Positions 16,954 to 32,301 of a stretch of DNA of 64,000 nucleotides are shown in pieces. How positions within the stretch are numbered: position 1 is the first letter of the stretch; the number at the start of each line of letters is the position of its first letter. Source of the DNA: an uncultured Actinomycetes bacterium. Its GTDB lineage: Bacteria; Actinomycetota; Thermoleophilia; UBA2241. A program made the translations under genes and the position numbers. The stretch covers positions 6,595 through 70,594 of the forward strand of contig CAWCWZ010000051.1 in the NCBI GenBank assembly GCA_963799395.1. The letters run 5' to 3'. The notes below the pieces were generated by a model. It worked only from the letters and a program-made list of their open reading frames with translations. It was not told the origin of the DNA and did no database searches.

Positions 16954-18469
16954 TCACCTACAGACCGACGATCGCGTCGAGGCGCGCCATGTCGAGGTGA
17001 GCTTCGACGTGGTCGGCGAGACGCTCGATGTCGGATGGGCCGGCGCCGCCAGTGCCCGGTGCGCGTCGGGCAGGCCGGCCGCGGCCCGCAGCCGCCCGAG
17101 GAACGCCTCCCTGAATTCGGCGGCGTCGAACAGGCCGTGCAGATAGGTGCCGCAGACCAGCCCGTCGGCGGAGACGGCGCCGTCGGCGTGGGTAGCCTCA
17201 GCGCTCGCCGCCACGTCCATGAGCGCGGCGACGCCGGGCGCCAGGGTTGTGGCACCCATGTGGATCTCGTACCCGTGCAGCGGCGTGCCCGCGGCCACAA
17301 GGGCCGAGCCGCTCGCTTCGCCGCTCACCCGCACCGTGCGCTTCGCTGCCCGGAACGTCGTGTCGACGTCGAGCAGGCCCAGGCCCGCCACCTCGGCGGC
17401 GGCCGATTCGACCCCCACGGGGTCGAGGATGCGGCGGCCCAGCATCTGGTAGCCGCCGCAGATGCCGATCACCGGTGTGCCGGCGGCGGCGGCCTGCGCG
17501 AGCGCGGCCGCGAGGCCGCGCTCGCGCAACCAGGCCAGGTCGGCCACCGTGCTCTTCGTGCCCGGCACGATGACGGCGGCGGCGGCCTGCAGGCCCTCCG
17601 GGGTGGTGACGAACTCGACGTCGACGTCGGGGTCGTCGGCGAGGGCATCGAAGTCGGTGTAGTTGCTGATGAAGGGCAGGCGTACGACGGCGATCCGCAG
17701 CGGCGCGCCCGGACGTCGGCGCCGCTCGTCGTCGATCGCCAGCGAGTCCTCCTCGTCGCCGCGCCAGTCGTTCAGGAAGGGCACGACGCCGAGGGTGGGC
17801 ACGCCGGTGCGCTCCTCGAGAAAGGCGAGTCCCGGGTCGAGCAGCGCCGCGTCGCCGCGGAACTTGTTGACGACAAAGCCGCGCACCAGCGCCTGCTCGG
17901 CCGGCGTGAAGAGCTCCATGTGACCGACCAGCGAGGCGAAGACGCCGCCCCGGTCGATGTCGCCGACCAGCAGCACCGGCGCCCGGGTGTGCAACGCCAC
18001 TCGCATATTGACGATGTCGCGGTCGCGCAGGTTGATCTCGGCCGGAACTGCCGGCGCCCTCGACCACCACGAGGTCGCTGGCCGCGCGCAGCCGGCCGAG
18101 CGCAGCCGTGACGACCGGCCAGACCTCCGCCTGGTAGGCGTGGTACCCGGCGACCGTCATGTCGTCGACCGGCCGGCCCATCACGACCACCTGACAGGCG
18201 CGCTCACTCGACGGCTTGAGCAGCACCGGGTTCATGTCGAGGTGGGGTTCCAGCCCGGCCGCGCCCGCCTGGTACACCTGGGCGCGGCCCATCTCGCCAC
18301 CGTCGGACGTGACGAACGAGTTGAGCGCCATGTTCTGCGCCTTGAAGGGCGCCACGCGCAGGCCGCGACGCGCGTAGATGCGGCAGAGGGCCGCGACCAG
18401 CACCGTCTTGCCGGCATGCGAGCCGGTGCCCTGGAGCATGACGATGCGGCCCGGCGGCGCGGTGCTCAT
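16954..18469 (-). CDS. cobQ: cobyric acid synthase; apparent frameshift near 18060
   Basis: N-terminal part (MSTAPPGRIVMLQGTGSHAGKTVLVAALCRIYARRGLRVAPFKAQNMALNS...VVVEGAGS) is in the frame of ORF 17198..19021. C-terminal GATase part (VLLVGDIDRGGVFAS...GICGGYQMLG...GYEIHMG) is in the frame of ORF 16954..18006. Confidence 0.85.
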
Positions 18470-18543
18470 CGCCAGACCTTCGCGGCCACGAGCGCGGCGA
18501 GTCCCGACGACAGCAGCAGAGAGACGGCGCCGGCCACGGGGCC

Positions 18544-19797
18544 TCAGGCCGCCGCGCCGTCGCCGGATACGGCCGACGCCAGTCTCGTCCGTAGCCGCCG
18601 CACGTCTCTCAACGTGAGGACCCACAACGAGGCGGCCAATCCGAGCCCGGCCGACAGCCAGCACGTGGTCGTCAGGCCGATCGCCGCGGTGACCGGCCCC
18701 GCCAGTGCCAGCCCGACCGGCCACAGGGCCAGCGAGCACATCCAGTCCCAGGCGCTGACGCGCGCGAGCGCCTCGTTGGGAATCTCGAGCTGTAGGGTCG
18801 TCGTCCAGAGCACCGAGTTCACCCCTACGGCCACGCCACGGAAGGCTTGCACGACGGTCAGCGCCACGAAATGTCCGCCGAGGGCCAGCACCAGCGGCGA
18901 GGCCGCGGCCGTCGCCCCGAGCAGCGCGCAGGCGACCATGGGACGTGCGAAACGAAGAAACGGCGCGCTTGCGCCGCCTACGAGGATGCCGCCGCTGAAG
19001 ACCGCGAGCACGATGCCCCAATGGGCCGCGCCGTGAGGGTGACCGTTCAGAACCAGCGGGCCGAGCACCTGGAACGGTGCCGAGACGATGAACAGCAGCA
19101 AGGCGGTGCGCAGGAGCATGGCCGCAAGCCAGGGCCGGTCCCGTACCTCTCGCCAGCCGTCGCGAAGCTCCCCGAGAAACGAGCCGACCTGCCGGACGCG
19201 CTCGGCCGGCACGACGCGCAACGTGGCGAGGAACCCGGCGCTGACCAGGAAGGTCGCGGCGTCGATGGCGACGGCACCACCCGGGCCGATGAAGGCGATC
19301 AGGGCGCCCGCCACGGCGGGGCCGACCATCAGGCCGATCCCGTAGGCAAAACCCAGCACGGCGTTGGCCGCCTGCACGTCGCGCTCCTCGACGAGTTGCG
19401 GCGTGAGGGCGCCGGCGGCGGGGACGAAGAAGGCCTGAGCGGCGCCGTAGGCGGCGAGAAGGACCACGAGCTCCCAGATGCGCGCGGTGTGCGTCAGCAG
19501 GAGAAGGGCAAGGATGGCCTGCGAACAGGCGCGCACGCAGTCTGAGACGAGCATCACGCGCTCGCGGCGCAGGCGGTCGCCCCAGACCCCGGCGACCAGG
19601 GTCAGCGCGACCAGCGGCGTGATCTGGGCGGCCAGGACAATGCCCAAGTCGGTCGCCGAGCCCGACATCCGCAGGACCGCGAAGGTGACGGCGACCGGGG
19701 TCAGGCCGTCACCGAAGGCCGAGATCGCCTGCCCCAGGAACAGATTGCGGAAGTTACGGACGCGCAGGACGTTCCAGCGCCGGATGAATCCCGTCAT
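18544..19797 (-). CDS. MFS transporter
   Basis: Intact 417-aa 12-TM protein (RNFRNLFLGQAISAFGDGLTPVAVTFAVL...). It sits between cobQ and the CbiR-like gene. Confidence 0.85.
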   Translation of the reverse strand: MTGFIRRWNVLRVRNFRNLFLGQAISAFGDGLTPVAVTFAVLRMSGSATDLGIVLAAQITPLVALTLVAGVWGDRLRRERVMLVSDCVRACSQAILALLLLTHTARIWELVVLLAAYGAAQAFFVPAAGALTPQLVEERDVQAANAVLGFAYGIGLMVGPAVAGALIAFIGPGGAVAIDAATFLVSAGFLATLRVVPAERVRQVGSFLGELRDGWREVRDRPWLAAMLLRTALLLFIVSAPFQVLGPLVLNGHPHGAAHWGIVLAVFSGGILVGGASAPFLRFARPMVACALLGATAAASPLVLALGGHFVALTVVQAFRGVAVGVNSVLWTTTLQLEIPNEALARVSAWDWMCSLALWPVGLALAGPVTAAIGLTTTCWLSAGLGLAASLWVLTLRDVRRLRTRLASAVSGDGAAA

Positions 19798-19869: not shown

Positions 19870-20733
19870 TCAGCCGGCCGGGATCAGCCGCTCGCGCCGC
19901 AGGTACGCAACGCTCGCCGACAGGCCTTCGGGCGTGAGCACCTCGATGATGGTGCTGACCCCGGACCGCCGAGCCGCCGCCAACACCGCGCCCGCGTCCA
20001 CCACGCCGCAGCCCAGGGCCAGGTGAGAGTCAACGCCGGTCGCGCCGTCCACCGGCCCCGCGTTGTCGTGCAGGTGCACGTGGCGGAGCTGCGCCTGCGG
20101 ATCGCGCAGGAACTCCGCGAGCGCCTCGCAAGCCGCGGCGTGCCCCGTGTCGAGCGCCAGGCCGAGCGCGCCAAGGTCGAGGTCGCCGGGGCGCGCGAAA
20201 TGGCTGTGGTCGGCACCCATCAGGTTCTCGAGCGCCACCTCCACGCCGTACTCGTCCTGAAGGGCCGCCAGCTCGACGATGCTCCGCTGGAGCGCATCGC
20301 GAACGGCGCCGCTGCGCACGATGGGTGTGAGGTCGTAGTCGGGGTGCAGCACGTAGACGGCGGCGCCGACATCTGCGGCCGCCTCGAGGTGGCGGCGGTG
20401 CACGGCGACCGCGGCCTTGCGGGCCGCCTCGGACGGGTGCCCCACGTCGGCGTTCTCCCAGGGGCCGTGCACGGTCAGCCGCAGGCCGCTCTGCACGACG
20501 GCCCGCCGGTTGGCCGCCCTGATCAGACTGTGGTTGTAGTCGCTGTAGACCTCGGCGAGCTCGGCGACGGATGCGATGTGGGCCAGAGCGGCCGCCAGCG
20601 GCTGGTCGAACCAGGCCGTGGCGGCGAGGCCGATGTCGGGGGGCAGGAGCACGCGGCGGCCTACCTCCGACTCACCTGGACGGCACCCGGGTCCTGGCCG
20701 AGCCTGCACCTCAGAAGGGGTACGTCTTGCCAC
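19870..20733 (-). CDS. sugar phosphate isomerase/epimerase (xylose isomerase-like TIM barrel, AP endonuclease 2 superfamily); possible CbiR-like cobamide-remodeling enzyme
   Basis: Intact 287-aa ORF with TIM-barrel metal-ligand pattern (VHGPWE...VLHPDY...ALENL...HVHLHDN). The CbiR suggestion rests on context (cobQ, DUF4430, corrinoid uptake genes) and on fold family only. Confidence 0.6.
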   Translation of the reverse strand: MARRTPSEVQARPGPGCRPGESEVGRRVLLPPDIGLAATAWFDQPLAAALAHIASVAELAEVYSDYNHSLIRAANRRAVVQSGLRLTVHGPWENADVGHPSEAARKAAVAVHRRHLEAAADVGAAVYVLHPDYDLTPIVRSGAVRDALQRSIVELAALQDEYGVEVALENLMGADHSHFARPGDLDLGALGLALDTGHAAACEALAEFLRDPQAQLRHVHLHDNAGPVDGATGVDSHLALGCGVVDAGAVLAAARRSGVSTIIEVLTPEGLSASVAYLRRERLIPAG

Positions 20734-22054
20734 TGAGCGCGACCACGACCTCCGACGTGGTCAGAAGCGGCATGGCAAGAGTCGTGCCGTAGTGGTAGAA
20801 GGCACCGGAGCTCGCCTGCAGCGAGAGCAGAAAGCTGATCGGCGTCTTGCCGCCCTTCTTCCACGCTCCACCGGCGGGGTTCTGCCCGACGGCGCGGATC
20901 GCCTGGACGGCCCATGCGGTCGACTCGGCGTTGGTCGTGCCGCCCATCCCGGAGGTAAAGCCCCCGTTGCTCATCTGCTGGCTGTGCAGATAGGAGAGGG
21001 CGCGCTCGATCGCGGTGTTCGAGGCGGAGATCCCGCCTGACCTCAGCGCCTCGACGGCCGCGGCCGTGTCATCGGGGTCCGGCGCCCCGCCGGGGGTGAA
21101 GGAGAACCCACCGTTCGACGCCTGCTGGCTGGTAAGCCAGGAAACCGACTTCGTGAGCTGCGAAGAGCTCTGCCCCGCCGCCCTGAGAGCGATCACCGCC
21201 CAGGTGGTGGTGGAGACGGCGGCGTAGGTGTCGCTCCCCCCCGGCGTCGTGGAGAAGACTCCGCTCTGGCTGTTCTCGTAGGCGAGGAGATGAGCCACGA
21301 GATCGATGTGTCCGCTGCCCGCCGTGCTTATCAGCGACGAGACCCCGGCGGCGTCATATGTGATGATCATCTTGGCGTAGAAGTTGGCGGGGTTGCTGGC
21401 CGTCCCGGAGCCGCCCGTGGCCACCTCGGTGATGTCCAGCGACTGCAGGTAGGCGATCGGGCCCTTACCCCCCGAGCGCCTGAACGTCGAGGGACTCTTG
21501 CCGGTAGCCGCGATAGCCTGAACCACCCAGGGCGTCGTGGTCGTCGTCTGCCCAGACGCGCCAAACCCTCCCGAGGTCAGCTGATTGGCGCGAAAATAGG
21601 AGACGGCCTTGCCGACCGAGCTGCGCACCTGCGAAGCCAGCGATGAGGAGCTGGAGGTCTTGGTCTTGGTCGGCTTGGGCTTCGGGGTGGACTTCTGGCT
21701 CGATGACTGCAGCGTTGAGGCCGCCGAACGGGGGGCCGACGGGGCCTGCACCGTACCGGCACCGGACTTGGCCGCCGGTTTCGTTGCCGCCGACTTCGTT
21801 GCCGCCGGCGTCGGCCCCGAAGCCGCCGACGCGGTCGCGCCCGGCGAAGGCGCCGCAGCATCCGCGAGGCTCGAGATCGCTGCCGCCGATGACGCGACCG
21901 GCGAAGAGGCCGCGGACGGCGACCCACCGCCCGACGACGACGAGCCCCTCCCGTTGACCAAGACAAAGACGCCGATCGCCACCACAAAGCCAACCACGAT
22001 GATCGCCGCGATGCTGCGCTGGACCGCTGCCATGTGTCGCGGACCACTGTTCAC
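20711..22054 (-). CDS. membrane-anchored prenyltransferase/squalene-cyclase-like alpha/alpha-toroid repeat protein
   Basis: N-terminal TM (IAAIIVVGFVVAIGVFVLV). A Ser/Ala/Pro/Thr-rich linker is followed by at least four QxxxGGF repeats (NQLTSGGFGA...PWVVQAIAATG; QQASNGGFSF...DTAAAVEALRS; QQMSNGGFTS...TAWAVQAIRAVG; LQASSGAFYH). Intact 447 aa. Confidence 0.7.
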   Translation of the reverse strand: MNSGPRHMAAVQRSIAAIIVVGFVVAIGVFVLVNGRGSSSSGGGSPSAASSPVASSAAAISSLADAAAPSPGATASAASGPTPAATKSAATKPAAKSGAGTVQAPSAPRSAASTLQSSSQKSTPKPKPTKTKTSSSSSLASQVRSSVGKAVSYFRANQLTSGGFGASGQTTTTTPWVVQAIAATGKSPSTFRRSGGKGPIAYLQSLDITEVATGGSGTASNPANFYAKMIITYDAAGVSSLISTAGSGHIDLVAHLLAYENSQSGVFSTTPGGSDTYAAVSTTTWAVIALRAAGQSSSQLTKSVSWLTSQQASNGGFSFTPGGAPDPDDTAAAVEALRSGGISASNTAIERALSYLHSQQMSNGGFTSGMGGTTNAESTAWAVQAIRAVGQNPAGGAWKKGGKTPISFLLSLQASSGAFYHYGTTLAMPLLTTSEVVVALSGKTYPF

Positions 22055-22250
22055 GCGAGCGCCTCCACCATCCCGAACGGACCTGAGCCGCCCGAGCCGT
22101 CACGCACCTCGGGCGCGGCCGACGGTCCCGTTGCGTGTACTATCGGCCGCGCGCCGAGTACTACGCCCTCACCCCCGCTGCCCGAACCGGCCACGAGCAG
22201 TGACGCAGCCCCCGCGCGCTGCATGGCCGTCGTGAGGACGCAGCGGACCA

Positions 22251-23309
22251 CTACTTCCCCTTGGGGATGACGATGGTCTGGACGGTCGTGCGGCCCCAGC
22301 CGTCCATGGCGGTGACCTTGACCCTGATGGACGTGGTCTTGGGCGCCGCGGGGCTCAGATGCAGCGTCAGCGTCTGCGCGCCGGCGGCTCGTGCCCCACT
22401 CCACTTCGCGAGGACCTTGGAGCCCTTGGTGACGGCGATGGTGACGGCCGAGCGTTCGCTCAGCTTGAAGTGCACCTTGACCGTCTTGGCGTTTGTGCGC
22501 CCTGCCGCAAGCGCGCCGAGAGCGGGCTTGGCGCCCACGTTGAGCAACACCGTCGCGGAGGGTGCGTAGACATCGGTGTCCATGGCCTTCTCAGACCAGA
22601 CGGCATACGTGCCCGACGCCAGGTCCTTGACCGCGAGCGTGGAGGCGGCACCCCCGTAGACCTGGCTGCCCACGTGAACGGTGGCGCCGTCGATGGCCGG
22701 GAACTGCGCCGGAGTCTGGATGTCGGTGGTCGAGAAGCGCGTTGCGTCGGCCTGGCTGTGGACATCGGCGAGGTTCGCCCCGACGGTGCTCACGGTGACG
22801 GTCTGACCGGGCGTAAAGCCATGCTTTGCCGTGCCCCCCGTGACTCTGGTCACAAGCAGGAACGCCGGCTTGCTGAACGTGGCGTCGGGGTTCTGGAACC
22901 ACAGGTAGCTGTCGCCGGCGACCGTCTGCAGGCTGCCCGCGCCGACAGGCGAAGCGTAGCCATTGACGGCGATCTCCCACCAATTGCTGTCGTCGCCGGC
23001 CATCGCGAGTCCGTCGATCGAGTTGACATACGGACCGGAGCCGCTGACGCTCATGTCCCAGGGCAGGCCACCCAACTGCAAGGCGGCCGCGGTGGCTCCC
23101 AGAGCGGTAGCGTTCGTCGTGGTGAATGAGGTGCCGTCGGTATCCACGATCTTGCCGCCGGCGGCGCTCTCGCTGACCGTCGTCCTGGGCAGCACCTGGA
23201 ATGTGGCCCCTTGCACACGCACGCTGCTCGACACGGCCAGCGCGGCAGGCGCGGCCACGAGAGCGATGGTCGCCACGGCGACCAGCACCAGAATGATCCT
23301 CTGCTTCAT
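22251..23309 (-). CDS. secreted DUF4430 (transcobalamin beta-domain-like) protein with C-terminal Ig-like region
   Basis: Signal peptide MKQRIILVLVAVATIALVAAPAALA. DUF4430-type core: VRVQGATFQVL...PYVNSIDGLAMAGDDSNWWEIAVNGYASPVGAGSLQTVAGDSYLWFQ. Intact; ORF-track N-terminal extension discounted. Confidence 0.7.
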   Translation of the reverse strand: MKQRIILVLVAVATIALVAAPAALAVSSSVRVQGATFQVLPRTTVSESAAGGKIVDTDGTSFTTTNATALGATAAALQLGGLPWDMSVSGSGPYVNSIDGLAMAGDDSNWWEIAVNGYASPVGAGSLQTVAGDSYLWFQNPDATFSKPAFLLVTRVTGGTAKHGFTPGQTVTVSTVGANLADVHSQADATRFSTTDIQTPAQFPAIDGATVHVGSQVYGGAASTLAVKDLASGTYAVWSEKAMDTDVYAPSATVLLNVGAKPALGALAAGRTNAKTVKVHFKLSERSAVTIAVTKGSKVLAKWSGARAAGAQTLTLHLSPAAPKTTSIRVKVTAMDGWGRTTVQTIVIPKGK

Positions 23310-23537
23310 GTGAGCTCCTTTCGTGAAACGGACCCCTGAGTCTACGTCGAACACAACTGCGGTCGTCGAACTGATACTGCGTATCATATACTGCAGTGGT
23401 CTAGTGTTGGCTAGAGCAAGCATGCCGACGTAGCTGTGAGGGTCCCCACACGTGACCGTGGAGAGTCAGCTGGGTCGCGCCGAACCTCGGCGGTGGGCCT
23501 TGAGACGGCTGACGTTGACACCTTCGACGGTGCCACT

Positions 23538-24503
23538 GTGACGCGCATCGCGTTTGCGCACAGATCGTCTGCGACCTCGCGGCCGCACATCACAGCCGCG
23601 ATCGTCGTGCTCGTGCTCCTGCTGGCCGTCGGAGTCGCGGGCTGTGCCGGAGTGCGGGGCAAGTGCACACCAGCGGCCAAGGGGCACGTGCCCGGCGCCG
23701 GCGAGGTGCGACTCATCGTCTCGGAGCACTTCGGCACCACCGTCATGCTCGACGAAGTCGTGCCCTGGAAACAGGAGCTCAACGTGATGACCCTTCTGGC
23801 CGCACACGCTCGCGTCGACACCGAGTACGGTGGCGGGTTCGTGAGCGCCATCAACGGTGTCAAGTCGACCTTTGGCGGCGTCTCGTCGACGCAGGCCGCC
23901 GACTGGTTCTACTGGGTCGACGGGATCATGGCCGGTGTCGGGGCCGCCGACTACCGGCTTCACGGCGGCGAGACCGTCTGGTGGGACTTCCATCAGTGGG
24001 TCGACGCGATGTCGATCCCGGCGACGCTCTCCGCCTTCCCAGCGCCGTGGAAGGGCCGTCCCCTGGAAGTCGCCACCAACGAGGCGTGGCCTGGGCTTCA
24101 GCAGTGGACGCAGGCGTCGGGGTTGACCCTGGGCCAGACGAGCTCCCTGGCCACAGGCGCTCCCGCCGGCGGCCTCATCGTCGCGACACCGCAGGAGGTC
24201 ACCACCACGAGGTGGCTCAGCCAGCTTCTCGACAGTGGCGACGGCGTGCAGATGGTAAATCTGAAGGGAGGAGGGATCTCGCTGCTCTCACCCGCTGGTG
24301 CTCAGGGACCTCCTGCGGACGCGGTCGCTTTGGCTCTGCCCGATACCAACAACGGCAACCGCCCCTTCTTGGTCGTGCTGGCCGATTCGACCTCAGCTGC
24401 GCAGCGCATGTTCATACTCCTCACGCCCAACGCCCTCGCGGGCCACGTGGCTGTGGCGTTGGTCAACGGCTCCCTTGTCACGCTGCCCTGGCACGCCCAG
24501 TGA
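23538..24503 (+). CDS. DUF4430 (transcobalamin beta-domain-like) lipoprotein
   Basis: Lipobox LLLAVGVAGC. DUF4430 core: GEVRLIVSEHFGTTVMLDEVVPW...GGGFVSAINGVKSTFGG...DWFYWVDGIMAGVGAADYRLHGGETVWWDFHQW. GTG start ~23538 (track ORF starts earlier at 23436). Confidence 0.7.
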   Translation: MTRIAFAHRSSATSRPHITAAIVVLVLLLAVGVAGCAGVRGKCTPAAKGHVPGAGEVRLIVSEHFGTTVMLDEVVPWKQELNVMTLLAAHARVDTEYGGGFVSAINGVKSTFGGVSSTQAADWFYWVDGIMAGVGAADYRLHGGETVWWDFHQWVDAMSIPATLSAFPAPWKGRPLEVATNEAWPGLQQWTQASGLTLGQTSSLATGAPAGGLIVATPQEVTTTRWLSQLLDSGDGVQMVNLKGGGISLLSPAGAQGPPADAVALALPDTNNGNRPFLVVLADSTSAAQRMFILLTPNALAGHVAVALVNGSLVTLPWHAQ

Positions 24504-25509
24504 ACGCGCCAGCCGCGAACGATCTCAGCAAGCCGCCGGCCACTGCCGCCTCGTCTGGGAGTCGCGTGCCGGCCTTCCGCGTGGCGCCGGCGATGCCGAG
24601 ACCGACCTCCAAGCGGCGACTCGAGCCGCGTCGCCGCGGCCTTGCGCGCCGCCAGCCCGTCGCCATCGTCGCCTACGTGGGCGCGCTCACCCTCGCCGCC
24701 CTGGTGCTCGTCAATCCCCTGCAGGTCACGGCGCTACTGGCGCTCTGCCTCGTCGTCCTGGTCGCCGCCGGGCGCGGCCGGGCGGCCTGGCCCTATCTCA
24801 AGACGGCTCTCTACATCGGTGGTTTCCTGGCCATCGTCAACCCGCTGATCAGCCGCAGCGGCAGCACCGTGCTCTGGCAGCTCCAGCTTGGCCCCTTCGA
24901 CGTGCCGATCACCATCCAGGGAATCGCCTACGGTGTGACGACGGCGCTGCGCATCATCGCCGTGATCACGGCCTTCGCCCTCTTCTCCTCGTCCTCGACC
25001 CCGACGACCAGCTCGGCCTCATGAGCCGGCTGTCGTTTCGCACCGGTCTTGTGATCTCGTTGGCCTCCCGGCTCTTGCCGGTGTTCTCGCGCGACGCGGC
25101 GCGCATCTCCAATGCCCAGCGCGCTCGCGGGGTAGAGCTCGACGCCGGCCGTCGACGCGCCCGCGTCGCGGCGCGCGTACCTTTGCTGGCCGCGCTCCTC
25201 GCTCAGAGCCTCGAGCGGGCCGTCGACGTCGCCGCCTCCATGGAGGCACGCGGCTTCGGCGCCCGCGACCGTTCGCACTGGTCGCACGGGCGGCGCTGGA
25301 GAACTGCCGACCTGGTCACCACGGCGGCGGCTCTGCTTGGCGCGGCGGCGCTGCTCGGGGGCCTCTTCGCCGGGGCCTTCTCGTACAACTTCTATCCCTT
25401 GCTGGACGACCCCTGGAGCCAGCTCGCCGGCATCTGGTGGCTGCTCGCCTTCGCGGCGCTCATCGTTCCCGCACTCTGGACCCTGCCGTGGCGACGCTCG
25501 CGCGACTGA
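24500..25509 (+). CDS. ecfT: ECF transporter T component (EcfT/CbrU-like); apparent frameshift near 24990
   Basis: First segment ALYIGGFLAIVNPLISRSGSTVLWQLQLGPFDVPITIQGIAYGVTTALRIIAVITAFALFS is in the frame of ORF 23663..25024. Second segment RLSFRTGLVISLASRLLPVFSRDAARISNAQRARGVEL... is in the frame of ORF 24298..25509. GTG start overlaps the upstream TGA (GTGA). Confidence 0.75.
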
Positions 25510-27161
25510 CCGACGTCACCTACTGGTACCCCGGACGCGAGAGGCCGGCTCTCCGCGACGTCTCGCTACGGATCGGTCCAGCCGAGGTGATCCTCGTGGT
25601 CGGCTCCTCGGGCAGCGGCAAGTCGACCTTGTTGCGCTGCCTGAACGGTCTCGTGCCGCACTTCCACGGCGGCACCCTCGCCGGGCACGTGGAGGTCGAC
25701 GGCAGGGACACGCGCACGTCACACACACACGAGCTGGCCCATGCCGTCGGTCTCGTCTTCCAGGATCCCGAGAGCCAGTCGGTGATGACCACAGTCGAGC
25801 GTGAGATCGCCTTTGGCCTCGAGAACAGGGGGGTGCCGAGCGCTGCGATCAGCCGCCTCGTCGAAGAGGCGCTTATTCTCCTCAGCCTGTCGCACCTGCG
25901 ACACGCCTCGCTCTCGACACTTTCGGGTGGAGAGCTGCAGAAGGTCGCTCTGGCCGCGGTCGTGGCCACCCAGCCGCAACTGCTGCTCCTGGACGAGCCG
26001 ACTTCGCAGCTCGACCCCGTGAGCTCCGAGGAGCTGCTCGCCGCCATCAGGCGACTCGCGGAGGACACGGGCTCGACCATCATCCTCGCCGAGCATCGCA
26101 CGGAGCGCTGCCTGCACCTGGTCACCCGCGTGCTATATATGGATGACGGCGTTCTGGCAGAAGACGCCGATCCGCAGGACTTCGCGGACTGGGCGCTGGA
26201 CGGACACCGCGGCTTGCTGCCGCCGGTCGCTCGCCTCTTCGCCCGCAGGACCAGCGACCGCTCGGCCGGCGCCGGCGACCCGGATCTGCCGATGACGGTC
26301 AAGGACGCTCGCCGTTTGCTTGTGACCCACGAAGACCCGCAGCCGCGTCGCAGCCCGGCCACGTCATGGAAACCCTCCGGCGGCATCGTCCTCGAAGCGC
26401 GCAAGCTGGCGATCGGCTACGACCCCGACGAGCCGCTGCTCGAGGGCTTGAGCTTCGGTCTGGCGCGCGGCGAGGCAGTGGCCCTCATGGGCGAGAACGG
26501 CGTGGGCAAGTCGACGCTGATCCGTCACTTCATCGGCTTGGCGCGGCCGCTGGCCGGCAAGGTCGTGCTGCTCGACCGCGACGTCTCCGAGATCACCGTG
26601 GCGGCGGCGGCACGTGACTGCGCCCTCATGGGTCAGAACCCGAACGACCTGTTCGTGAAGGACACTGTGGCCGAGGAGATCGCCTTCACGCTCGACGCAC
26701 TGGGTATCACCGGCGAGCGGCACGACTCCCTGACGGCCAAGATCGTCGCCGAGCTTGATCTGGAAGCTCTCCTGCAGCGGAACCCACGCGACCTGTCGGG
26801 CGGCGAGCGCACGCGGGTCGCGCTCGCCGCCACCGTCTGCGGAGACCCCACCATGGTCGTGCTCGACGAGCCCACGAGAGGCATGGACGCACGGCACAAG
26901 GCCGAGCTTGCCGCGACGATACGCCGCTGGGTCAGTGCGGGCCGCTGCGTCGTGCTCGTCACGCACGACGTGGAGTTCGCGGCGAGCGTCGTCGAGCGGG
27001 TGATCGTGCTCGGCGACCGCGGCCTGCTGGCCGACGGGCCCGTGGCCGACGTGCTCGACGGGTCGCTGTTCTTCTCGACGCAGATCAACCGTCTGTTCCG
27101 CCGCGTGCTTCCCGGCATCCTGCGCGAGGACGAGATCCAATGGGGAGAGGGAGCCTCGTGA
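25488..27161 (+). CDS. ecfA: fused duplicated ECF transporter ATPase (EcfA-EcfA', CbrV-like)
   Basis: Intact 574-aa ORF with two complete ABC cassettes (GSSGSGKSTLL / LSGGELQKVALA / LLLLDEP and GENGVGKSTLI / LSGGERTRVALA / MVVLDEP). Confidence 0.9.
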   Translation: MATLARLTDVTYWYPGRERPALRDVSLRIGPAEVILVVGSSGSGKSTLLRCLNGLVPHFHGGTLAGHVEVDGRDTRTSHTHELAHAVGLVFQDPESQSVMTTVEREIAFGLENRGVPSAAISRLVEEALILLSLSHLRHASLSTLSGGELQKVALAAVVATQPQLLLLDEPTSQLDPVSSEELLAAIRRLAEDTGSTIILAEHRTERCLHLVTRVLYMDDGVLAEDADPQDFADWALDGHRGLLPPVARLFARRTSDRSAGAGDPDLPMTVKDARRLLVTHEDPQPRRSPATSWKPSGGIVLEARKLAIGYDPDEPLLEGLSFGLARGEAVALMGENGVGKSTLIRHFIGLARPLAGKVVLLDRDVSEITVAAAARDCALMGQNPNDLFVKDTVAEEIAFTLDALGITGERHDSLTAKIVAELDLEALLQRNPRDLSGGERTRVALAATVCGDPTMVVLDEPTRGMDARHKAELAATIRRWVSAGRCVVLVTHDVEFAASVVERVIVLGDRGLLADGPVADVLDGSLFFSTQINRLFRRVLPGILREDEIQWGEGAS

Positions 27162-27961
27162 GCCCGCAAGAGCCCAAGGCTCTGCCTGGTCGCCTGCGGC
27201 GCGATCTCGTCGCCTGGCTGCTGCTGGCCGTTCTCGGTGTCGTCGCGCTGGTGGCGGCAGGCTATGCCGTCCTCGACCCCGGCGCCGTCAACTGGGGCTT
27301 CCTCAGTCTCGTACTCATCGCCGCCGTCGTCGGCTTCGCACTGGTCGCCTATGGCCTGCGCGATTCGAGCGCCAGCGAGCTGTCGCTGATCGCCGCCCTG
27401 GCGGCCCTGGCCACGGCCGGTCGTGTGCTCTTCGCCTCACTGCCCAACTTCAAGCCGGTGACCTTCATCGTTCTCGTCTCCGGCGTCGCTCTGGGGCCGG
27501 CTCCGGGCTTCATGGTGGGCGCGACGACGGCCGTGGTCTCCAACCTGTTCTTCGGTCAGGGGCCGTGGACGCCCTGGCAGATGCTCGCCTGGGGACTGGT
27601 CGGCGTAGTGGGCGGGCTCATGGGCATCAAGGGCAGGCGGCCCCGGCGCTGGGAGCTGGTGCTGGTCGGAGCGGCGCTGTCCGTCGGCTTCGACTGGTTC
27701 GTGACCCTCTGGATGTATCTCTCCTACACTCCGCACACCTGGCCCGCGCTCGTCGCGCTCTACGGCCAGGGCCTGCCTTTCGACGTGTCGCACCTGAGCG
27801 CCACGGCCATACTGGCGGCGCTGTTCGGTCCCCGGGCGATCGCCATCATCGCGCGTTTCCGCGCCCGGACGAGCGTGAGGTTCCTGCCGGCGTCACCAGC
27901 GCGCCGTGCACTGCCCAGCCTTGACGGTCCGCAGCGATTCGACAATGCTTCTCAGCCATGA
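27140..27961 (+). CDS. ECF transporter substrate-specific (S) component (CbrT-like candidate)
   Basis: Intact 273-aa protein with 6 predicted TMs. Overlaps the ecfA stop. Family assignment within S-components is not possible by eye. Confidence 0.65.
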   Translation: MGRGSLVSPQEPKALPGRLRRDLVAWLLLAVLGVVALVAAGYAVLDPGAVNWGFLSLVLIAAVVGFALVAYGLRDSSASELSLIAALAALATAGRVLFASLPNFKPVTFIVLVSGVALGPAPGFMVGATTAVVSNLFFGQGPWTPWQMLAWGLVGVVGGLMGIKGRRPRRWELVLVGAALSVGFDWFVTLWMYLSYTPHTWPALVALYGQGLPFDVSHLSATAILAALFGPRAIAIIARFRARTSVRFLPASPARRALPSLDGPQRFDNASQP

Positions 27962-28414
27962 AGGTCCAAAACCCACACCAGTCCTCGATCGACGAGGTCT
28001 TCGCCGCCCGCGGCATCCCGCTCACACGGCAGCGCCGCGCCATCTGGCAGTACTTCGCGTCGGCCGGCCGGGCGAGCACCGTCCCGGAGGCCGCGGAGGC
28101 TCTCCGCACGCAGGGCATCGGCCAGGCGACCGTCTACCGTGCGGTCGGCTTGCTCGACGGAGCTTGGCCTGCTGCTCAGCGTCCACGTCGGCGAAGGGCG
28201 CCCCTGTTATGCGGCGCCACCGGTCGGTCACAGTCATCCGCTCATCTGTGGAGTCTGCCGCAGGATCGTCGATTTCGACGGTGATGGGGACCTCCGCTAC
28301 CTCGAGAAACAGCTCGAGACCACGACGGGGTTTGCCATCTACGGCCATCATCTGGAGGTCTACGGCATCTGCCCTGACTGCAGACGAGAGCAACGCGAGG
28401 CCATGCCCTCCTAG
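27958..28414 (+). CDS. Fur-family transcriptional regulator (Zur/PerR-like); apparent frameshift near 28150
   Basis: N-terminal part MKVQNPHQSSIDEVFAARGIPLTRQRRAIWQYFASAGRASTVPEAAEALRTQGIGQATVYRAVGLLD is in ORF 27958..28284. C-terminal part VGHSHPLICGVCRRIVDFDG...YGHHLEVYGICPDCR is in ORF 28139..28414. ATG overlaps the S-component TGA (ATGA). Confidence 0.7.
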
Positions 28415-28559: not shown

Positions 28560-28757
28560 CTACGCCTTCACGGCGACCAGCGAGACACCGAGCGTGTCCT
28601 CGAGCTCCTTGATCTTGGCGACCTGGCCGCCGTCGATGGCAGCCGGCTCCGCCGCATGGCAGGCGAAGGCGAGCACTGGGACCCCCAGGTCCTTCTCAAG
28701 CGCCCCGATCTTCTCCAGCTGCTGCTGGTCGAGCTTGGTCGCAAGGCTGCACAGCAT
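28560..28757 (-). CDS. small hypothetical protein
   Basis: MLCSLATKLDQQQLEKIGALEKDLGVPVLAFACHAAEPAAIDGGQVAKIKELEDTLGVSLVAVKA. Non-biased composition. Lies downstream of the HTH gene in the cobO transcript direction. Confidence 0.35.
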   Translation of the reverse strand: MLCSLATKLDQQQLEKIGALEKDLGVPVLAFACHAAEPAAIDGGQVAKIKELEDTLGVSLVAVKA

Positions 28758-28931
28758 GGTCGTGGCTCGTTTCGGCGATGGCAACCGATCGTCGGCCACC
28801 TTCCCGCCTGGACCGCAAAGTAAGCGCGGTGACGCGACCAAACGCCGGCACTTGCATCCGACGCCGCCGCGCCCAGCGATCTACCGCAAGCGATATCCGG
28901 TGCGCGGGCCGGTCAGCCGCTCGCGGGCGGG

Positions 28932-29438
28932 TCATTGTCGCGCGATGGCCCCGCCATGGGCGCGCGTCGCCAGGCCCTCGAGATCGAGATGATCGAGGTC
29001 CCTGCGGATGGTCATCTGCGACACGCCGAGCAACGCGCTCAAAGACGAGACGCGCACGGCCCGCCGCTCGTCGAGTAGCGCGATGATGTGTGCGCGGCGC
29101 TCGGCGGCAAGAGTTTGCGGCGCCCTGCCCGCCTGTTGGTGCGACCCCACCGGCCGCTGCTCAGGGGGTTCGTCACGCGAGCACCGGTCTACGGCGGCAA
29201 ACACTTCGGGCCCACCCGCCCGCAACGCCACGATATCGGCCAGCGGGACGCGCCAGTGACCGGCGGACGTCTGGAAGGCGTCCGGCAGCAGGCCACTCTC
29301 GAGGGCCGCCCGCATGACGCCGGGATGCACGGCAAGTATGCGAGCGGCGTCTCGTAGCGAGCGCAATCCGGCCTCGTGCTCGATGACGTTGGCGATCTCC
29401 GCTCCCTCGGTAGCGTTCACCCAGCGATGCGGCATCAT
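28932..29438 (-). CDS. DNA-binding protein with excisionase-type HTH (HTH_17-like) plus C-terminal DeoR-type HTH
   Basis: LRSLRDAARILAVHPGVMRAALESGLLPDAFQTSAGHWRVPLADIVALRAG followed by HIIALLDERRAVRVSSLSALLGVSQMTIRRDLDHLDLEGLATRAHGGA. Start taken at MMPHRW. Confidence 0.55.
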   Translation of the reverse strand: MMPHRWVNATEGAEIANVIEHEAGLRSLRDAARILAVHPGVMRAALESGLLPDAFQTSAGHWRVPLADIVALRAGGPEVFAAVDRCSRDEPPEQRPVGSHQQAGRAPQTLAAERRAHIIALLDERRAVRVSSLSALLGVSQMTIRRDLDHLDLEGLATRAHGGAIARQ

Positions 29439-29478
29439 TCCCTCCTTTTCTGGCAACGGCCACGGCTCCTTGCGCGCA

Positions 29479-30075
29479 CTAGAACTCGATCCCGGCGCGT
29501 GCCTGCACACCGCGTTGGTAGTAGTGCTTGACCTCATGCATCTCGGTGACCAGGTCGGCCCGTTCGATCAAGGCCGGTGGCGCGTAGCGGCCGGTGATCA
29601 CGAGCTCGACTGCCGGCGGCCGCGCTTCAACCAACTCGAGGCAATCGCGCGCCGAGAGCAGGCCGAACCAGACCGCGACGTCGAGCTCGTCGAGCACGAC
29701 GAGGTCGTTCTCGCCTGAGATAAGCGCGGCGGCGGCGCGGGCGTGGCCCTCGAAGGCGTGCCGGCGGTGCACCGTGGTGACCTCGTCGCGATGGATGCAC
29801 CCGGGATCGCCGAACTGCTCGACGGTGATCAGCGGGTTGTCGCGCAACGCGGCAATCTCGCCGTAGGAGCTGGCCTTCATGAACTGACCGACCCAGACCC
29901 GCTTACCATGACCGGCGGCCCGCAGGACCAGGCCGAAGGCGGCCGTAGTCTTGCCCTTGCCCTCACCGGTGTAGATGTGCACGTAGCCGCGGCCTGTCGC
30001 AGCTCGAGCGCCAAACTCAGCGCTCCCAGACGTTCGGTCGAGCTTCGCAGACAGCGTATGCGCGGTCGTGGGCAT
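29479..30075 (-). CDS. cobO: cob(I)yrinic acid a,c-diamide / cob(I)alamin adenosyltransferase
   Basis: MPTTAHTL...GRGYVHIYTGEGKGKTTAAFGLVLRAAGHGKRVWVGQFMK...VVLDELDVAVWFGLL...ELVITGRYAPPALIERADLVTEMHEVKHYYQRGVQARAGIEF. RBS AAGGAGA precedes ATG 30075. ORF-track N-terminal extension discounted. Confidence 0.9.
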   Translation of the reverse strand: MPTTAHTLSAKLDRTSGSAEFGARAATGRGYVHIYTGEGKGKTTAAFGLVLRAAGHGKRVWVGQFMKASSYGEIAALRDNPLITVEQFGDPGCIHRDEVTTVHRRHAFEGHARAAAALISGENDLVVLDELDVAVWFGLLSARDCLELVEARPPAVELVITGRYAPPALIERADLVTEMHEVKHYYQRGVQARAGIEF

Positions 30076-30159
30076 GGCTTCTCCTTTGTGGCGATGGAGT
30101 CCGTGGACGATGCGAGGAATGCGCGGCACGAGGAATGGCTCTGGGGGAGTGGGCGGAGG

Positions 30160-30200
30160 AGAGTCGCAACAACACGGTGAGCCGGCCTGATCGGCCGGGA
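30160..30200 (-). terminator. putative riboswitch expression-platform hairpin (attenuator) in cobO leader
   Basis: Minus-strand CCGGCCgatcaGGCCGG stem-loop followed by CUCACCGUGUUGUUG. It lies between the B12 box and the cobO RBS. Confidence 0.35.
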
Positions 30201-30269
30201 CCGAAGTGTTTCTCGAGCGCCGATGTGAAGGCACGCCGGTCCTCCCGCGAGGTTCGCCGTCAGCGTCTC

Positions 30270-30425
30270 CTCGGGGCCCGTCTCCTGGCTTGCCGCCTGA
30301 AAGCCTACTGGTCGCGCCTTCCCGTCTCTCTCTTGAGAGACAGTGGCATGCCGGCGACGTTCGTCAGCGGTCACAGTTGCGGGGCAGCACCGGTCTTGCA
30401 CCGGTTTCCGTGTGCCTCCGAGGCA
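30270..30425 (-). ncRNA. cobalamin (AdoCbl) riboswitch
   Basis: Minus-strand sequence reads GGTGcaagaccGGTGCTGCCCCGCAACTGTGAccgc...GCCACTG...GGGAAGGC...AGGCggcaAGCCAGGAGACGGGCC. It contains the conserved CCCGCAACUGU, GCCACUG and GGGAAGGC elements and a near-consensus B12 box (AGCCAGGAGACGGGCC). It lies upstream of cobO. Confidence 0.85.
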
Positions 30426-30495
30426 GTTACTTGAGAAACATTATCAAATGGCTCTCGCGTCGGTCAAGCGCCGGGCGGGCAGTTTGGCGCCGGGT

Positions 30496-32301
30496 ATGCT
30501 TCACCTACGGATGAAGACCTTCTGGCGCATCACCAAGCTGCTCGGCGACTACCCGTGGCTCGTCTTCGTCGGTTTCAGCACGGCGCTGCTGCAGACGGCC
30601 GCGTCGCTCGCCATCCCCTGGCTCACCCGCGGGGTCATCAACAAGGCGCTCGTGCCCGGCAAGACGAGCCTGCTGATCTGGTACGGCCTGGCGATGCTCG
30701 GGATCGGCGTCCTGCGCTTCGGCTTCGCCGTCGCCCGCCGTCTGTCGACCGGCAAGGTCAGCCTCGCCATCGAGTACGACCTGCGTAACCGCATGTGGGG
30801 TCATCTGCTGCGCCAACCGTTCACCTACTTCGACCGCTGGCCCACCGGGCAGCTCATGTCGCGGGCCATGGCCGACATCCAGAACGTGCGCATGTTCCTG
30901 GGCTACGGCCTCATCTTCTTCACCACCAACATCTTCACGATGGTCGCGGTCACCGTGCTGATGTTCTTTCTGGACTGGCAGCTCGCCCTGCTCAGCCTGG
31001 CGTTCCTGCCACTCCTGCTGCTCGTCACCGTGCGCTTCAGCCGCCGCCTGCAGCCGATCCTGCGCGACGTCCAGCAGAAGATCGCCGACGTCACCGCGAC
31101 GGCTGAAGAGAACGTGACCGGCTCGCGGATCGTACGCATCTTCGCCCGCGAAGACGACGAGCTCGCCAAGTTCTCCGACCGCAGCACGAGGGTGTTCGAG
31201 GCCGAGGTGAGCGCCGCCCGTATCCGCGCCTTCTACGTGCCGCTGATCGGCTTTCTGCCCAATCTCGCGGTCGTCGTGCTGCTCTACGGGGGCGGCCGCG
31301 CGGTCATCGACGGCAGCCTCAGCCTGGGCTCGCTCGTGGCTTTCTACAGCTACCTGATGATGCTCATCTACCCGGCCCAGGTGATCGGCTGGCTCACCGG
31401 CCTCGCCCAGCGCGCCATCGCCTCGGGGCATCGCGTGTACGAGATCCTCGACGCGCCGATCGAGATGCTCGAGCGCCCCGACGCGACCCCCGTGCCGAGC
31501 ATCCGCGGCGAGGTGCGCTTCGAGAACGTGTCGTTCTCGTACGTCGACCGGCCGGTGCTCGAGAACGTCGACCTCAAGGTGCCGGCCGGCCACACGATCG
31601 CCCTCGTGGGCCACACCGGCTGCGGCAAGACGACCCTGACCAACCTGGTGCCGCGCTTCTACGATACCGGCGACGGCCGCATCCTGATCGACGGCCTCGA
31701 CGTGCGCGAGGCCCGCCTCGCCGATCTGCGCAGCCACATCGGCGTCGTCACCCAGGACCCGTTCCTGTTCTCGACGACCGTCGCCGACAACATCCGCTTC
31801 GGTCGCCCCGAGGCAAGCGACGAGCAGGTGCGTGAGGCGGCCGAGCGCGCCCAGGCCGCGTCGTTCATCGAGGCCTTGCCCGACGGCTACGAGACGGTCG
31901 TCGGCGAGCGCGGCCTCTCCCTGTCGGGCGGCCAGCGCCAGCGCATCGCCATCGCTCGCGCGCTCGTCGTCGATCCCCGGATCCTCATCCTCGACGACGC
32001 CACCTCGAGCGTCGACGCCGAGACGGAGTTCAAGATCAGGCGCGCACTGGTCGAGGTCATGAAGGGCCGCACGACCTTCATCATCGCCCACCGGCCGTCG
32101 ACCATCTCGCTGGCCGAGGAGATCGTGGTGATGGACAAGGGACGCGTCGTCGAGCGCGGCGTCCACGCCGAGCTGATCGCCGGCGACACCCTCTACCGGC
32201 GCATGTTCGGCGCCGCGGAGCTCGAAGGCACGACACTCGATGCGGCCGACGGCTTCGCCGGCGATGGGCGCGGCGCGCGGCGCCGGGGCAAGGTGGGCTG
32301 A
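30496..32301 (+). CDS. ABC transporter ATP-binding/permease protein (type I exporter half-transporter)
   Basis: Intact. Six-TM domain plus NBD (GHTGCGKTTL, LSGGQRQRIAIARAL, ILILDDATSSVD). Start chosen at MLHLRMKTFW; the track ORF starts earlier at 30343. Confidence 0.85.
   Translation: MLHLRMKTFWRITKLLGDYPWLVFVGFSTALLQTAASLAIPWLTRGVINKALVPGKTSLLIWYGLAMLGIGVLRFGFAVARRLSTGKVSLAIEYDLRNRMWGHLLRQPFTYFDRWPTGQLMSRAMADIQNVRMFLGYGLIFFTTNIFTMVAVTVLMFFLDWQLALLSLAFLPLLLLVTVRFSRRLQPILRDVQQKIADVTATAEENVTGSRIVRIFAREDDELAKFSDRSTRVFEAEVSAARIRAFYVPLIGFLPNLAVVVLLYGGGRAVIDGSLSLGSLVAFYSYLMMLIYPAQVIGWLTGLAQRAIASGHRVYEILDAPIEMLERPDATPVPSIRGEVRFENVSFSYVDRPVLENVDLKVPAGHTIALVGHTGCGKTTLTNLVPRFYDTGDGRILIDGLDVREARLADLRSHIGVVTQDPFLFSTTVADNIRFGRPEASDEQVREAAERAQAASFIEALPDGYETVVGERGLSLSGGQRQRIAIARALVVDPRILILDDATSSVDAETEFKIRRALVEVMKGRTTFIIAHRPSTISLAEEIVVMDKGRVVERGVHAELIAGDTLYRRMFGAAELEGTTLDAADGFAGDGRGARRRGKVG

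Follow-up and report, generated by a model that had tools for sequence, protein, structure and literature searches.

A cobalamin riboswitch ahead of cobO in an uncultured actinobacterium, with a downstream platform that may act through an upstream start codon and a C-rich leader

Cobalamin riboswitches of Rfam family RF00174, among them that of Escherichia coli btuB and the class I, adenosylcobalamin (AdoCbl) switches, are the closest described relatives of the element considered here; class I is defined by a large extension of helix P6, as summarised by Kipkorir et al. (PMC11260477). In the B12 switch of Mycobacterium tuberculosis ppe2, loop L13 is flanked by the anti-translation initiation region (anti-TIR) and the TIR of an upstream open reading frame (uORF) whose translation PPE2 requires, according to the same paper (Kipkorir et al., NAR 2024, PMC11260477). 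Control of Rho-dependent termination by riboswitches is described for the Mg2+ sensor of mgtA and the flavin mononucleotide (FMN) sensor of ribB (Hollands et al. 2012, as cited in PMC11260477) and for the Mbox uORF of M. tuberculosis (PMC12810186). We describe here an RF00174 riboswitch on the minus strand of a 64-kb stretch of contig CAWCWZ010000051.1 from an uncultured Actinomycetes bacterium (the window, meaning the whole stretch). It lies directly upstream of cobO, the gene for ATP:corrinoid adenosyltransferase, and is followed by a platform that resembles the uORF-dependent and the Rho-dependent systems.

The identification lies far beyond chance. When the whole window was scanned with cmscan against Rfam, RF00174 matched at 30457..30258 on the minus strand with 82.4 bits (E 9.2e-19; gathering score 31.5 bits) and over model positions 1-189 of 189, and it was the only riboswitch in the 64 kb, no other family reaching its gathering score. 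An earlier reading of the letters, made without database searches (the sequence-only reading), had proposed a canonical cobalamin riboswitch on this strand and had named the cmscan score as its check; the score is well over the gathering threshold. The blocks that it quoted, ACCGGUGCAAGACCGGUGCUGCCCCGCAACUGUGA, GCCACUG, GGGAAGGC and the B12 box AGCCAGGAGACGGGCC, are all located on the minus strand, and in the Rfam alignment AGCCAGGAGACGGGCC, GGAAACCGGUGC, GCCACUG and GGGAAGGC match the consensus with high posterior probability. Its interval, 30160-30425, spans the transcribed aptamer, the platform hairpin and a GC-rich hairpin; the ribosome-binding site of cobO falls outside. A permissive E-value scan of 14-36 kb recovered the same RF00174 match, and even at E <= 1 it gave no second cobalamin riboswitch in that range for the energy-coupling factor (ECF) transporter or other genes of the surrounding corrinoid island.

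The same aptamer precedes cobO in relatives. The nearest CobO proteins are those of metagenome-assembled genomes (MAGs) of uncultured Actinomycetes, Thermoleophilia and Solirubrobacteraceae, and the riboswitch stands before cobO in loci L001, L002, L021 (identical to L027 and L029) and L030, with 66-87 bits; all of the related leaders come from MAGs or metagenomes. Together with the window these make five distinct leaders, in which the aptamer is nearly invariant while the flanks have diverged. A metagenome pattern scan for further leaders yielded one locus only. The aptamer of L001 has an extra insertion of ~60 nucleotides (nt) inside the P6 extension (L001 2560..2660) and still scores 66 bits.

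The window riboswitch is like other RF00174 members in its full model match, B12 box, GGAA junction, C-rich L5 loop and P6 extension, the last holding GCCACUG and GGGAAGGC, and also in its hairpin with a G-rich loop just downstream of the aptamer and in its position before a corrinoid gene. It differs in two respects: it lacks a P2 arm, and some 190 nt separate the aptamer from the annotated start of cobO. P1 leads almost directly into P3, and the P1/P2 columns of the model hold non-canonical pairs on promoter DNA. The sigma-70-like promoter concerned (Table 1) has 10 of 12 hexamer matches, against 0.1 expected in shuffles, and both hexamers are kept in L001, L002, L021 and L030 as well as in L017, a relative that has no riboswitch. 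Transcription would start near 30433, and because the RNA start is placed there, the first ~24 positions of the model (about 30457..30434) fall on DNA upstream of the predicted start. The large peripheral P6 extension is matched (model positions about 94-165, including GCCACUG...GGGAAGGC), so that the architecture appears class-I-like, of the AdoCbl type, with AdoCbl as the presumed ligand.

Pairing in P1 is maintained among the relatives. The six outer pairs (30423..30418 with 30274..30269) are 100% paired across the five leaders, among which a C-G pair becomes U-A by a double change and two wobble changes affect one side only, whereas sliding the partner strand by 1-3 columns as a control left 37-65% paired; the sample is small, and five related leaders are too few for statistical covariation. 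We consider it highly probable that this is a real riboswitch and that it represses in response to B12.

Directly 3' of the aptamer lies the platform hairpin, P13. Its core is the 14-nt block CCUCGCGGGAGGAC, which does not vary and is confined to riboswitch-bearing loci; in the outer stem of P13, a G-C pair is replaced by A-U in L030 through a double change. Its GCGG loop is complementary to the CCCCG of L5, and both are invariant in the five leaders. The 3' strand of P13 is a Shine-Dalgarno (SD)-like GGGAGGA, followed 5 nt on by GUG (window, L002 and L030) or UUG (L021) in four of the five distinct leaders; in the window, GGGAGGA-N5-GUG spans 30246..30232. The leader frame that opens at this codon keeps the phase of cobO and reaches its AUG in the window, L002 and L021, over 159, 162 and 147 nt, respectively; that of L030 is out of frame and overlaps cobO, ending 13 nt after its start. 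Codon 2 differs at the wobble position only (CCU, CCA, CCG). The window thus has what is looked for in a uORF platform, namely an SD and a start in or next to the L13 hairpin with a frame that reaches the main gene. When the platform and the 3' strand of P1 were folded together with RNAalifold, an alternative helix was obtained, in which CGAGG of P1 pairs with CCUCG of P13 and GAGGA lies in a small hairpin loop. Forced folds of the window gave -92.1 for the bound-like and -95.3 for the alternative state, a difference of about 3 kcal/mol. The minimum free energy (MFE) z-score of the whole leader was not significant (-0.72).

Farther on, just ahead of the SD of cobO, the leader is C-rich and G-poor over 78 nt (C 50%, G 15%), and its C/G ratio, 3.25, is exceeded by no 78-nt window on either strand of the 64 kb. 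The leaders of L021 and L030 have ratios of 2.11 and 2.00, both within the top 0.6% of the window background, and that of riboswitch-less L017 has 1.0. By composition, this is the C-rich, G-poor stretch of ~80 nt downstream of a sensor that is sought in Rho attenuation, and hence a candidate Rho loading (rut) site.

Table 1. Coordinates of the riboswitch, its platform and the neighbouring genes in the 64-kb window
Feature	Position	Strand	Basis or remark
Sigma-70-like promoter: -35 TTGACC (30467..30462), 16-nt spacer, -10 GATAAT (30445..30440)	30467..30440	-	Promoter scan
Transcribed aptamer	about 30423..30269	-	Within RF00174 match 30457..30258
P1 5' strand: CCUCGG, bulged A, GGC	30423..30414	-	Pairs with 30277..30269
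L5 loop CCCCG, C-rich kissing-loop half (putative)	30384..30380	-	Rfam alignment
GCCACUG block	30347..30341	-	Sequence
B12 box AGCCAGGAGACGGGCC	30290..30275	-	Rfam alignment and sequence
P1 3' strand: GCC then CCGAGG	30277..30269	-	Pairs with 30423..30414
Platform hairpin P13: CGG, CGAA, CCUC, GCGG, GAGG, A, CCG	30259..30237	-	Conservation
SD-like GGGAGGA, 3' strand of P13	30246..30240	-	Sequence; 5 nt upstream of GUG 30234
Candidate gated start GUG, opening a 53-codon leader frame in frame into cobO	30234..30232	-	Sequence; translation presumed
GC-rich hairpin, core CCGGCC/GGCCGG (CCGGCC-GAUCA-GGCCGG, 30198..30182), extended AACAC...GUGUU	30210..30168	-	-19.8 kcal/mol
C-rich, G-poor tract, candidate rut site; holds CUCUCCUCC at 30163..30155	30164..30087	-	Composition
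cobO SD AAGGAGA	30086..30080	-	Sequence; AAGGAGA-N4-AUG at 30086..30073
cobO, ATP:corrinoid adenosyltransferase (CobA/CobO/BtuR), 198 aa from AUG 30075	30075..29479	-	Pfam and NCBIfam
HTH_17 + HTH_DeoR DNA-binding protein, 168 aa, without effector domain	29438..28932	-	Domain search
Promoter-like motif of 65-aa ORF	28825..28797	-	Alignment of upstream regions
65-aa ORF	28757..28560	-	Reading frame; conserved family
fur, split between two frames	27958..28414	+	27958..28284 is FUR profile 3-54; 28139..28414 is 55-121
DUF4430 protein	23436..24503	+	
DUF4430 protein	22251..23423	-	
Prenyltransferase-like alpha/alpha toroid protein	20711..22054		
CbiR-like AP_endonuc_2	19870..20733		65 bits, below cutoff
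ECF transporter: EcfT/CbiQ, fused double ATPase, DUF6580-type S component	in cluster 19870..27961		
cobQ (cobyric acid synthase), frameshifted	about 16954..18480	-	CbiA-type N-part MSTAPPGRIVMLQGTGSHAGKT... in ORF 17198..19021

We propose that the element is a functional class-I-like switch that acts as a translational OFF switch at the upstream GUG, with Rho-type polarity and/or loss of coupling bearing on cobO, and we give this full mechanism a probability of roughly 0.55. The sequences establish membership in the family, the promoter and the genes around it, conservation with covariation in P1 and P13, and the base composition of the leader; the ligand, the OFF direction, the use of GUG 30234 and the involvement of Rho are what we infer. 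Transcription would proceed from the sigma-70-like promoter. Binding of AdoCbl would close P1 and would also stabilise P13, probably through a kissing loop between L5 and L13 (CCCCG with GCGG). P13 would then bury the GGGAGGA of the GUG, so that no ribosomes load; in the ribosome-free leader of 159 nt the C-rich tract would be bare, and Rho and/or lost translational coupling would silence cobO. In the ligand-free RNA, the 3' strand of P1 would instead pair with CCUCG of P13, and the SD would be exposed, the leader translated and cobO expressed. Enough coenzyme B12 would in this way turn off cobO and the HTH_17/DeoR gene that follows it, a form of end-product feedback on corrinoid adenosylation. 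The genomic context fits feedback by AdoCbl, because the downstream gene makes adenosylated corrinoid.

The M. tuberculosis ppe2 and metE switches offer the nearest parallel. As described in PMC11260477, these too are actinobacterial and place L13 between an anti-TIR and a TIR, which in the window are CCUC and GGGAGGA-N5-GUG, the latter opening a frame to the main gene; likewise they have no intrinsic terminator, and Rho and/or translational coupling has been proposed. There are also differences: the main gene in the window, cobO, has a strong SD of its own, and the leader is in frame with cobO in three of the four leaders that keep the start, rather than joined by an NUGA overlap. The window aptamer keeps a large P6 extension, whereas that of ppe2 is truncated, and ppe2 has been dissected experimentally (PMC11260477), whereas the window is known from sequence. 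To the Rho-dependent riboswitches of mgtA, ribB and Mbox the window is alike in its long C-rich, G-poor leader between sensor and gene and in a translational platform that would expose this leader, the likeness being one of composition.

Several observations weigh against the proposed mechanism, and confidence in it stays near 0.55 mainly because of two of them: the strong SD that cobO retains for itself, and the loss of the upstream start in L001. The SD AAGGAGA of cobO is present in all five leaders, and with its AUG it forms a strong, conserved start about 150 nt downstream of the GUG. Riboswitch-less L017 uses the SD of cobO itself (there AAAGGG), so that CobO can be made without the upstream start. 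In L001 a 1-nt deletion removes the first base of the upstream start, and the riboswitch is kept. The in-frame status of three of four leaders has a probability of about 0.1 by chance, and the sequence of the leader peptide is not conserved. The stop-free leader frame was considered as coding evidence and rejected, since in leaders this rich in GC almost every one of the three frames is free of stops; base composition is more telling than the open frame. Even the compositional signature is weak or marginal in L002 (C/G 1.61) and absent in L001 (1.19). The alternative helix carries an A-C mismatch in L001 and L002, and L5 and L13, the halves of the putative kissing loop, are both invariant and so leave no covariation to compare. 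Finally, the window has two apparent frameshifts elsewhere, in fur and cobQ, which make the reading frames of the assembly not fully trustworthy.

There are other scenarios for how the aptamer might control cobO. In one, the ligand would allow the GC-rich hairpin downstream of P13 (core 30198..30182) to act as an intrinsic terminator together with GUGUUGUUG (30174..30166), making a transcriptional OFF switch. The sequence-only reading had pictured the region in this manner, as a CCGGCC/GGCCGG hairpin with a downstream U-rich stretch and then an AAGGAGA ribosome-binding site; the hairpin and the ribosome-binding site were located, but the supposed U-rich run begins 8 nt past the stem and is no U tract. 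That reading passed over the conserved P13 hairpin with its SD and GUG, and the C-rich tract as well. We regard the terminator as unlikely, even though each of the five leaders has a stable GC hairpin (-16 to -25 kcal/mol) in the corresponding place, with a consensus helix that shows one double change in RNAalifold. Two distant cobO riboswitches, in L011 and in L012 (Athalassotoga), do use a textbook hairpin and U8-9 terminator. High-GC actinobacteria, for their part, are reported to have few canonical terminators, so that weak ones are possible. However, a scan of 29400..31000 called no intrinsic terminator, and across the five leaders the U counts in the 8 nt that follow the hairpin are 2, 0, 0, 3 and 4, the tail in the window being GCGACUCU with 2 U. 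Within the run itself, GUGUU is predicted to pair with AACAC as an extended stem. No anti-terminator alternative was identified for the GC hairpin, and it is the SD hairpin, not the GC hairpin, that is invariant. An intrinsic-terminator platform was accordingly rejected, the hairpin being present but the scan negative and the tails having 0-4 U per 8 nt.

A second scenario, which we likewise hold to be improbable, is a classical translational switch at the ribosome-binding site of cobO, in which CUCUCCUCC would pair with the 3' tail of P1, GAGGAGACG, when ligand-free, and with AAGGAGA when ligand is bound. UCUCCU is complementary to AGGAGA, GAGGAGACGC is paired with GCGACUCUCCUC when the entire leader is folded to its MFE structure without constraints, and the RNAalifold consensus holds an anti-SD:SD helix for the other leaders, but the window breaks this helix. 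Separated anti-TIR and anti-anti-TIR elements are described for the metE switch of M. tuberculosis (PMC11260477). Against such a switch, RNAduplex energies for pairing of the leader with the 3' tail of P1 or with the SD of cobO are no better than those of shuffled leaders, of which a fraction of 0.55 and 0.57, respectively, does at least as well in the window (the lowest fraction, 0.07, is that of L021), and predicted accessibility of the SD is nearly equal in the "bound" and "free" folds and inconsistent across the five leaders. An anti-SD/anti-anti-SD model for the SD of cobO was rejected because of this inconsistency among homologues and because duplex energies are at shuffle level.

A decaying, non-functional aptamer relic, with cobO constitutive from its own SD as in the riboswitch-less relatives (L017, a close relative with the same promoter and neighbours, and likewise L032 and L034) and with the frameshifted fur and cobQ as signs of decay, is very improbable given an RF00174 score far over threshold, conserved blocks that are all intact, an aptamer nearly invariant in five leaders despite diverged flanks, and compensatory changes in P1 and P13.

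The translational OFF mechanism at the upstream GUG can be taken a step further, although we do so tentatively and consider the extended scheme less probable than the mechanism itself. In it, the B12 aptamer would gate the GUG or UUG buried in P13 rather than the ribosome-binding site of cobO; translation of the 150-nt leader would yield an N-terminally extended CobO where the frames agree or a coupled uORF where they do not, and would shield the rut tract from Rho; and the regulator encoded in the same unit would relay B12 status.

The sequence-only reading had taken a riboswitch before an adenosyltransferase gene to be less common than one before transport or biosynthesis genes, a view that the relatives do not bear out. 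Of 15 genome loci that encode CobO relatives, 4 have RF00174 directly before cobO, Athalassotoga among them. The arrangement is recurrent, is seen in distant phyla and is already known; it is also found in the distant low-GC genomes L011 and L012 (Athalassotoga sp.). In these two, as in the window, the gene immediately after RF00174 is a monocistronic-looking cobO, and the riboswitches score 100 and 101 bits, respectively; a GC hairpin and U8-9 follow, and then an SD and start within about 80 nt, whereas in the window the leader is two times longer and a U tract is missing.

Among near relatives, the riboswitch is present in some and absent from others. Loci L017, L032 and L034 have cobO and show no riboswitch even at E <= 1 and no P13 motif, and the same is true of L031 within its 178 nt of upstream sequence; a degenerate riboswitch in these four was rejected for the same reasons, with nothing at E <= 1 and the P13 motif missing. 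Locus L017 (2836..3007) shares with the window its promoter, the divergent ABC exporter and the cobO-HTH-65aa synteny, and its leader is only ~70 nt, untranslated. A module of roughly 330 nt, comprising the aptamer and the roughly 190-nt platform, is therefore a presence/absence polymorphism between near relatives. In L032 (2058..2501) and L034 (1232..1711) the gaps before cobO are 440-480 nt long and without an Rfam match at E <= 1, and one or two Fur-family genes precede them.

The gene controlled most directly is cobO. The sequence-only reading had called the first gene 3' of the riboswitch cobO, and the protein families agree: it matches PF02572 with E 1.7e-59 (201 bits against a cutoff of 25.7) and reaches NCBIfam NF004637 at its cutoff (185.5 against 185 bits), with 155.5 bits to TIGR00708, under the cutoff of 167.75. 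The next gene, beginning 40 nt after cobO, was correctly read as a DNA-binding protein of HTH_17/DeoR type, as both HTH_17 and HTH_DeoR domains were found. It follows cobO in every syntenic relative (L001, L017, L030, L032 and L034), and no terminator was found between the two genes. Because the synteny is kept and no terminator intervenes, we take cobO and the HTH gene as the regulated unit, probably co-transcribed and co-controlled by the riboswitch.

The small ORF of 65 codons farther downstream, which the sequence-only reading had thought likely to be under the same control, is a doubtful member of the unit. Sequence alignment gives it a promoter-like motif, GCTT(G/A)-N16-GGG(A/T)A, present in 9 of 10 aligned upstream regions about 40-70 nt before the ATG, which we take to resemble a SigB/SigF-type promoter. 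It also occurs without cobO in other genomes, beside CODH/ACS (L024, L026), beside a RACo gene between two cobalamin riboswitches (L020), and in unrelated contexts (L018, L022). For both of these reasons, the ORF probably has its own promoter and is not clearly gated by the riboswitch. The family numbers 92 matches, nearly always of 65 aa, with an invariant N-terminal MLCSL and a second invariant Cys; it matches no Pfam or NCBIfam family. Its AlphaFold2 model (pLDDT 93.6) has a beta-alpha-beta-alpha arrangement with no PDB match.

On the opposite strand, the ORF drawn from 30343 was suspected not to be coding at its start, and this proved right: the ABC exporter begins at ATG 30511, with ABC_membrane from residue 19, and L001 and L027 agree with it in the N-terminus MKTFWRITKLL and in the called length, 596 aa. 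The motif GGGTATGCTT at 30492..30501 (+), 9 nt upstream of this ATG, recurs unchanged in L001, L002, L017 and L021, and probably serves as the -10 element for a near-leaderless exporter mRNA that diverges, back to back, from the riboswitch promoter.

The 17-30 kb region had been described as a corrinoid-related island, and the proteins encoded there support this. They include cobQ, a CbiR-like gene, two DUF4430 proteins and an ECF transporter; in transcobalamins, DUF4430 is the C-terminal domain (PMC4350170). The cluster 19870..27961 is a candidate for corrinoid uptake and remodelling without a riboswitch of its own, with the riboswitch-linked HTH protein or a Fur-like protein as candidate regulator. 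The Fur-like gene is split between two frames, and an intact Fur of 152 aa is present in syntenic L030; cobQ is frameshifted as well, its GATase_3 part (NCBIfam CobQ profile positions 135-444 of 480) lying in 16954..18156. The two splits are either pseudogenes or assembly indels.

Finally, we note what these results mean for this lineage. The riboswitch as such is ordinary, and it correctly points to an island for corrinoid salvage and remodelling in this uncultured actinobacterium; its analysis corrects two gene starts, that of the ABC exporter and possibly that of cobO. The riboswitch-bearing and riboswitch-less near relatives offer a natural comparison for the gain and loss of riboswitch modules. 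The only element that is not routine is, plausibly, the platform: with its SD hairpin and GUG, long C-rich leader and second SD, it is a candidate second case, outside Mycobacterium, of B12 control through leader translation and Rho. To our knowledge, uORF-dependent B12 riboswitch logic has so far been shown only in M. tuberculosis. If the extended scheme is true, this logic would extend to a distant actinobacterial class (a Solirubrobacterales-like lineage), and B12 status would be relayed to an effector-less DeoR/HTH_17 regulator, which perhaps controls the neighbouring riboswitch-less ECF corrinoid transporter.

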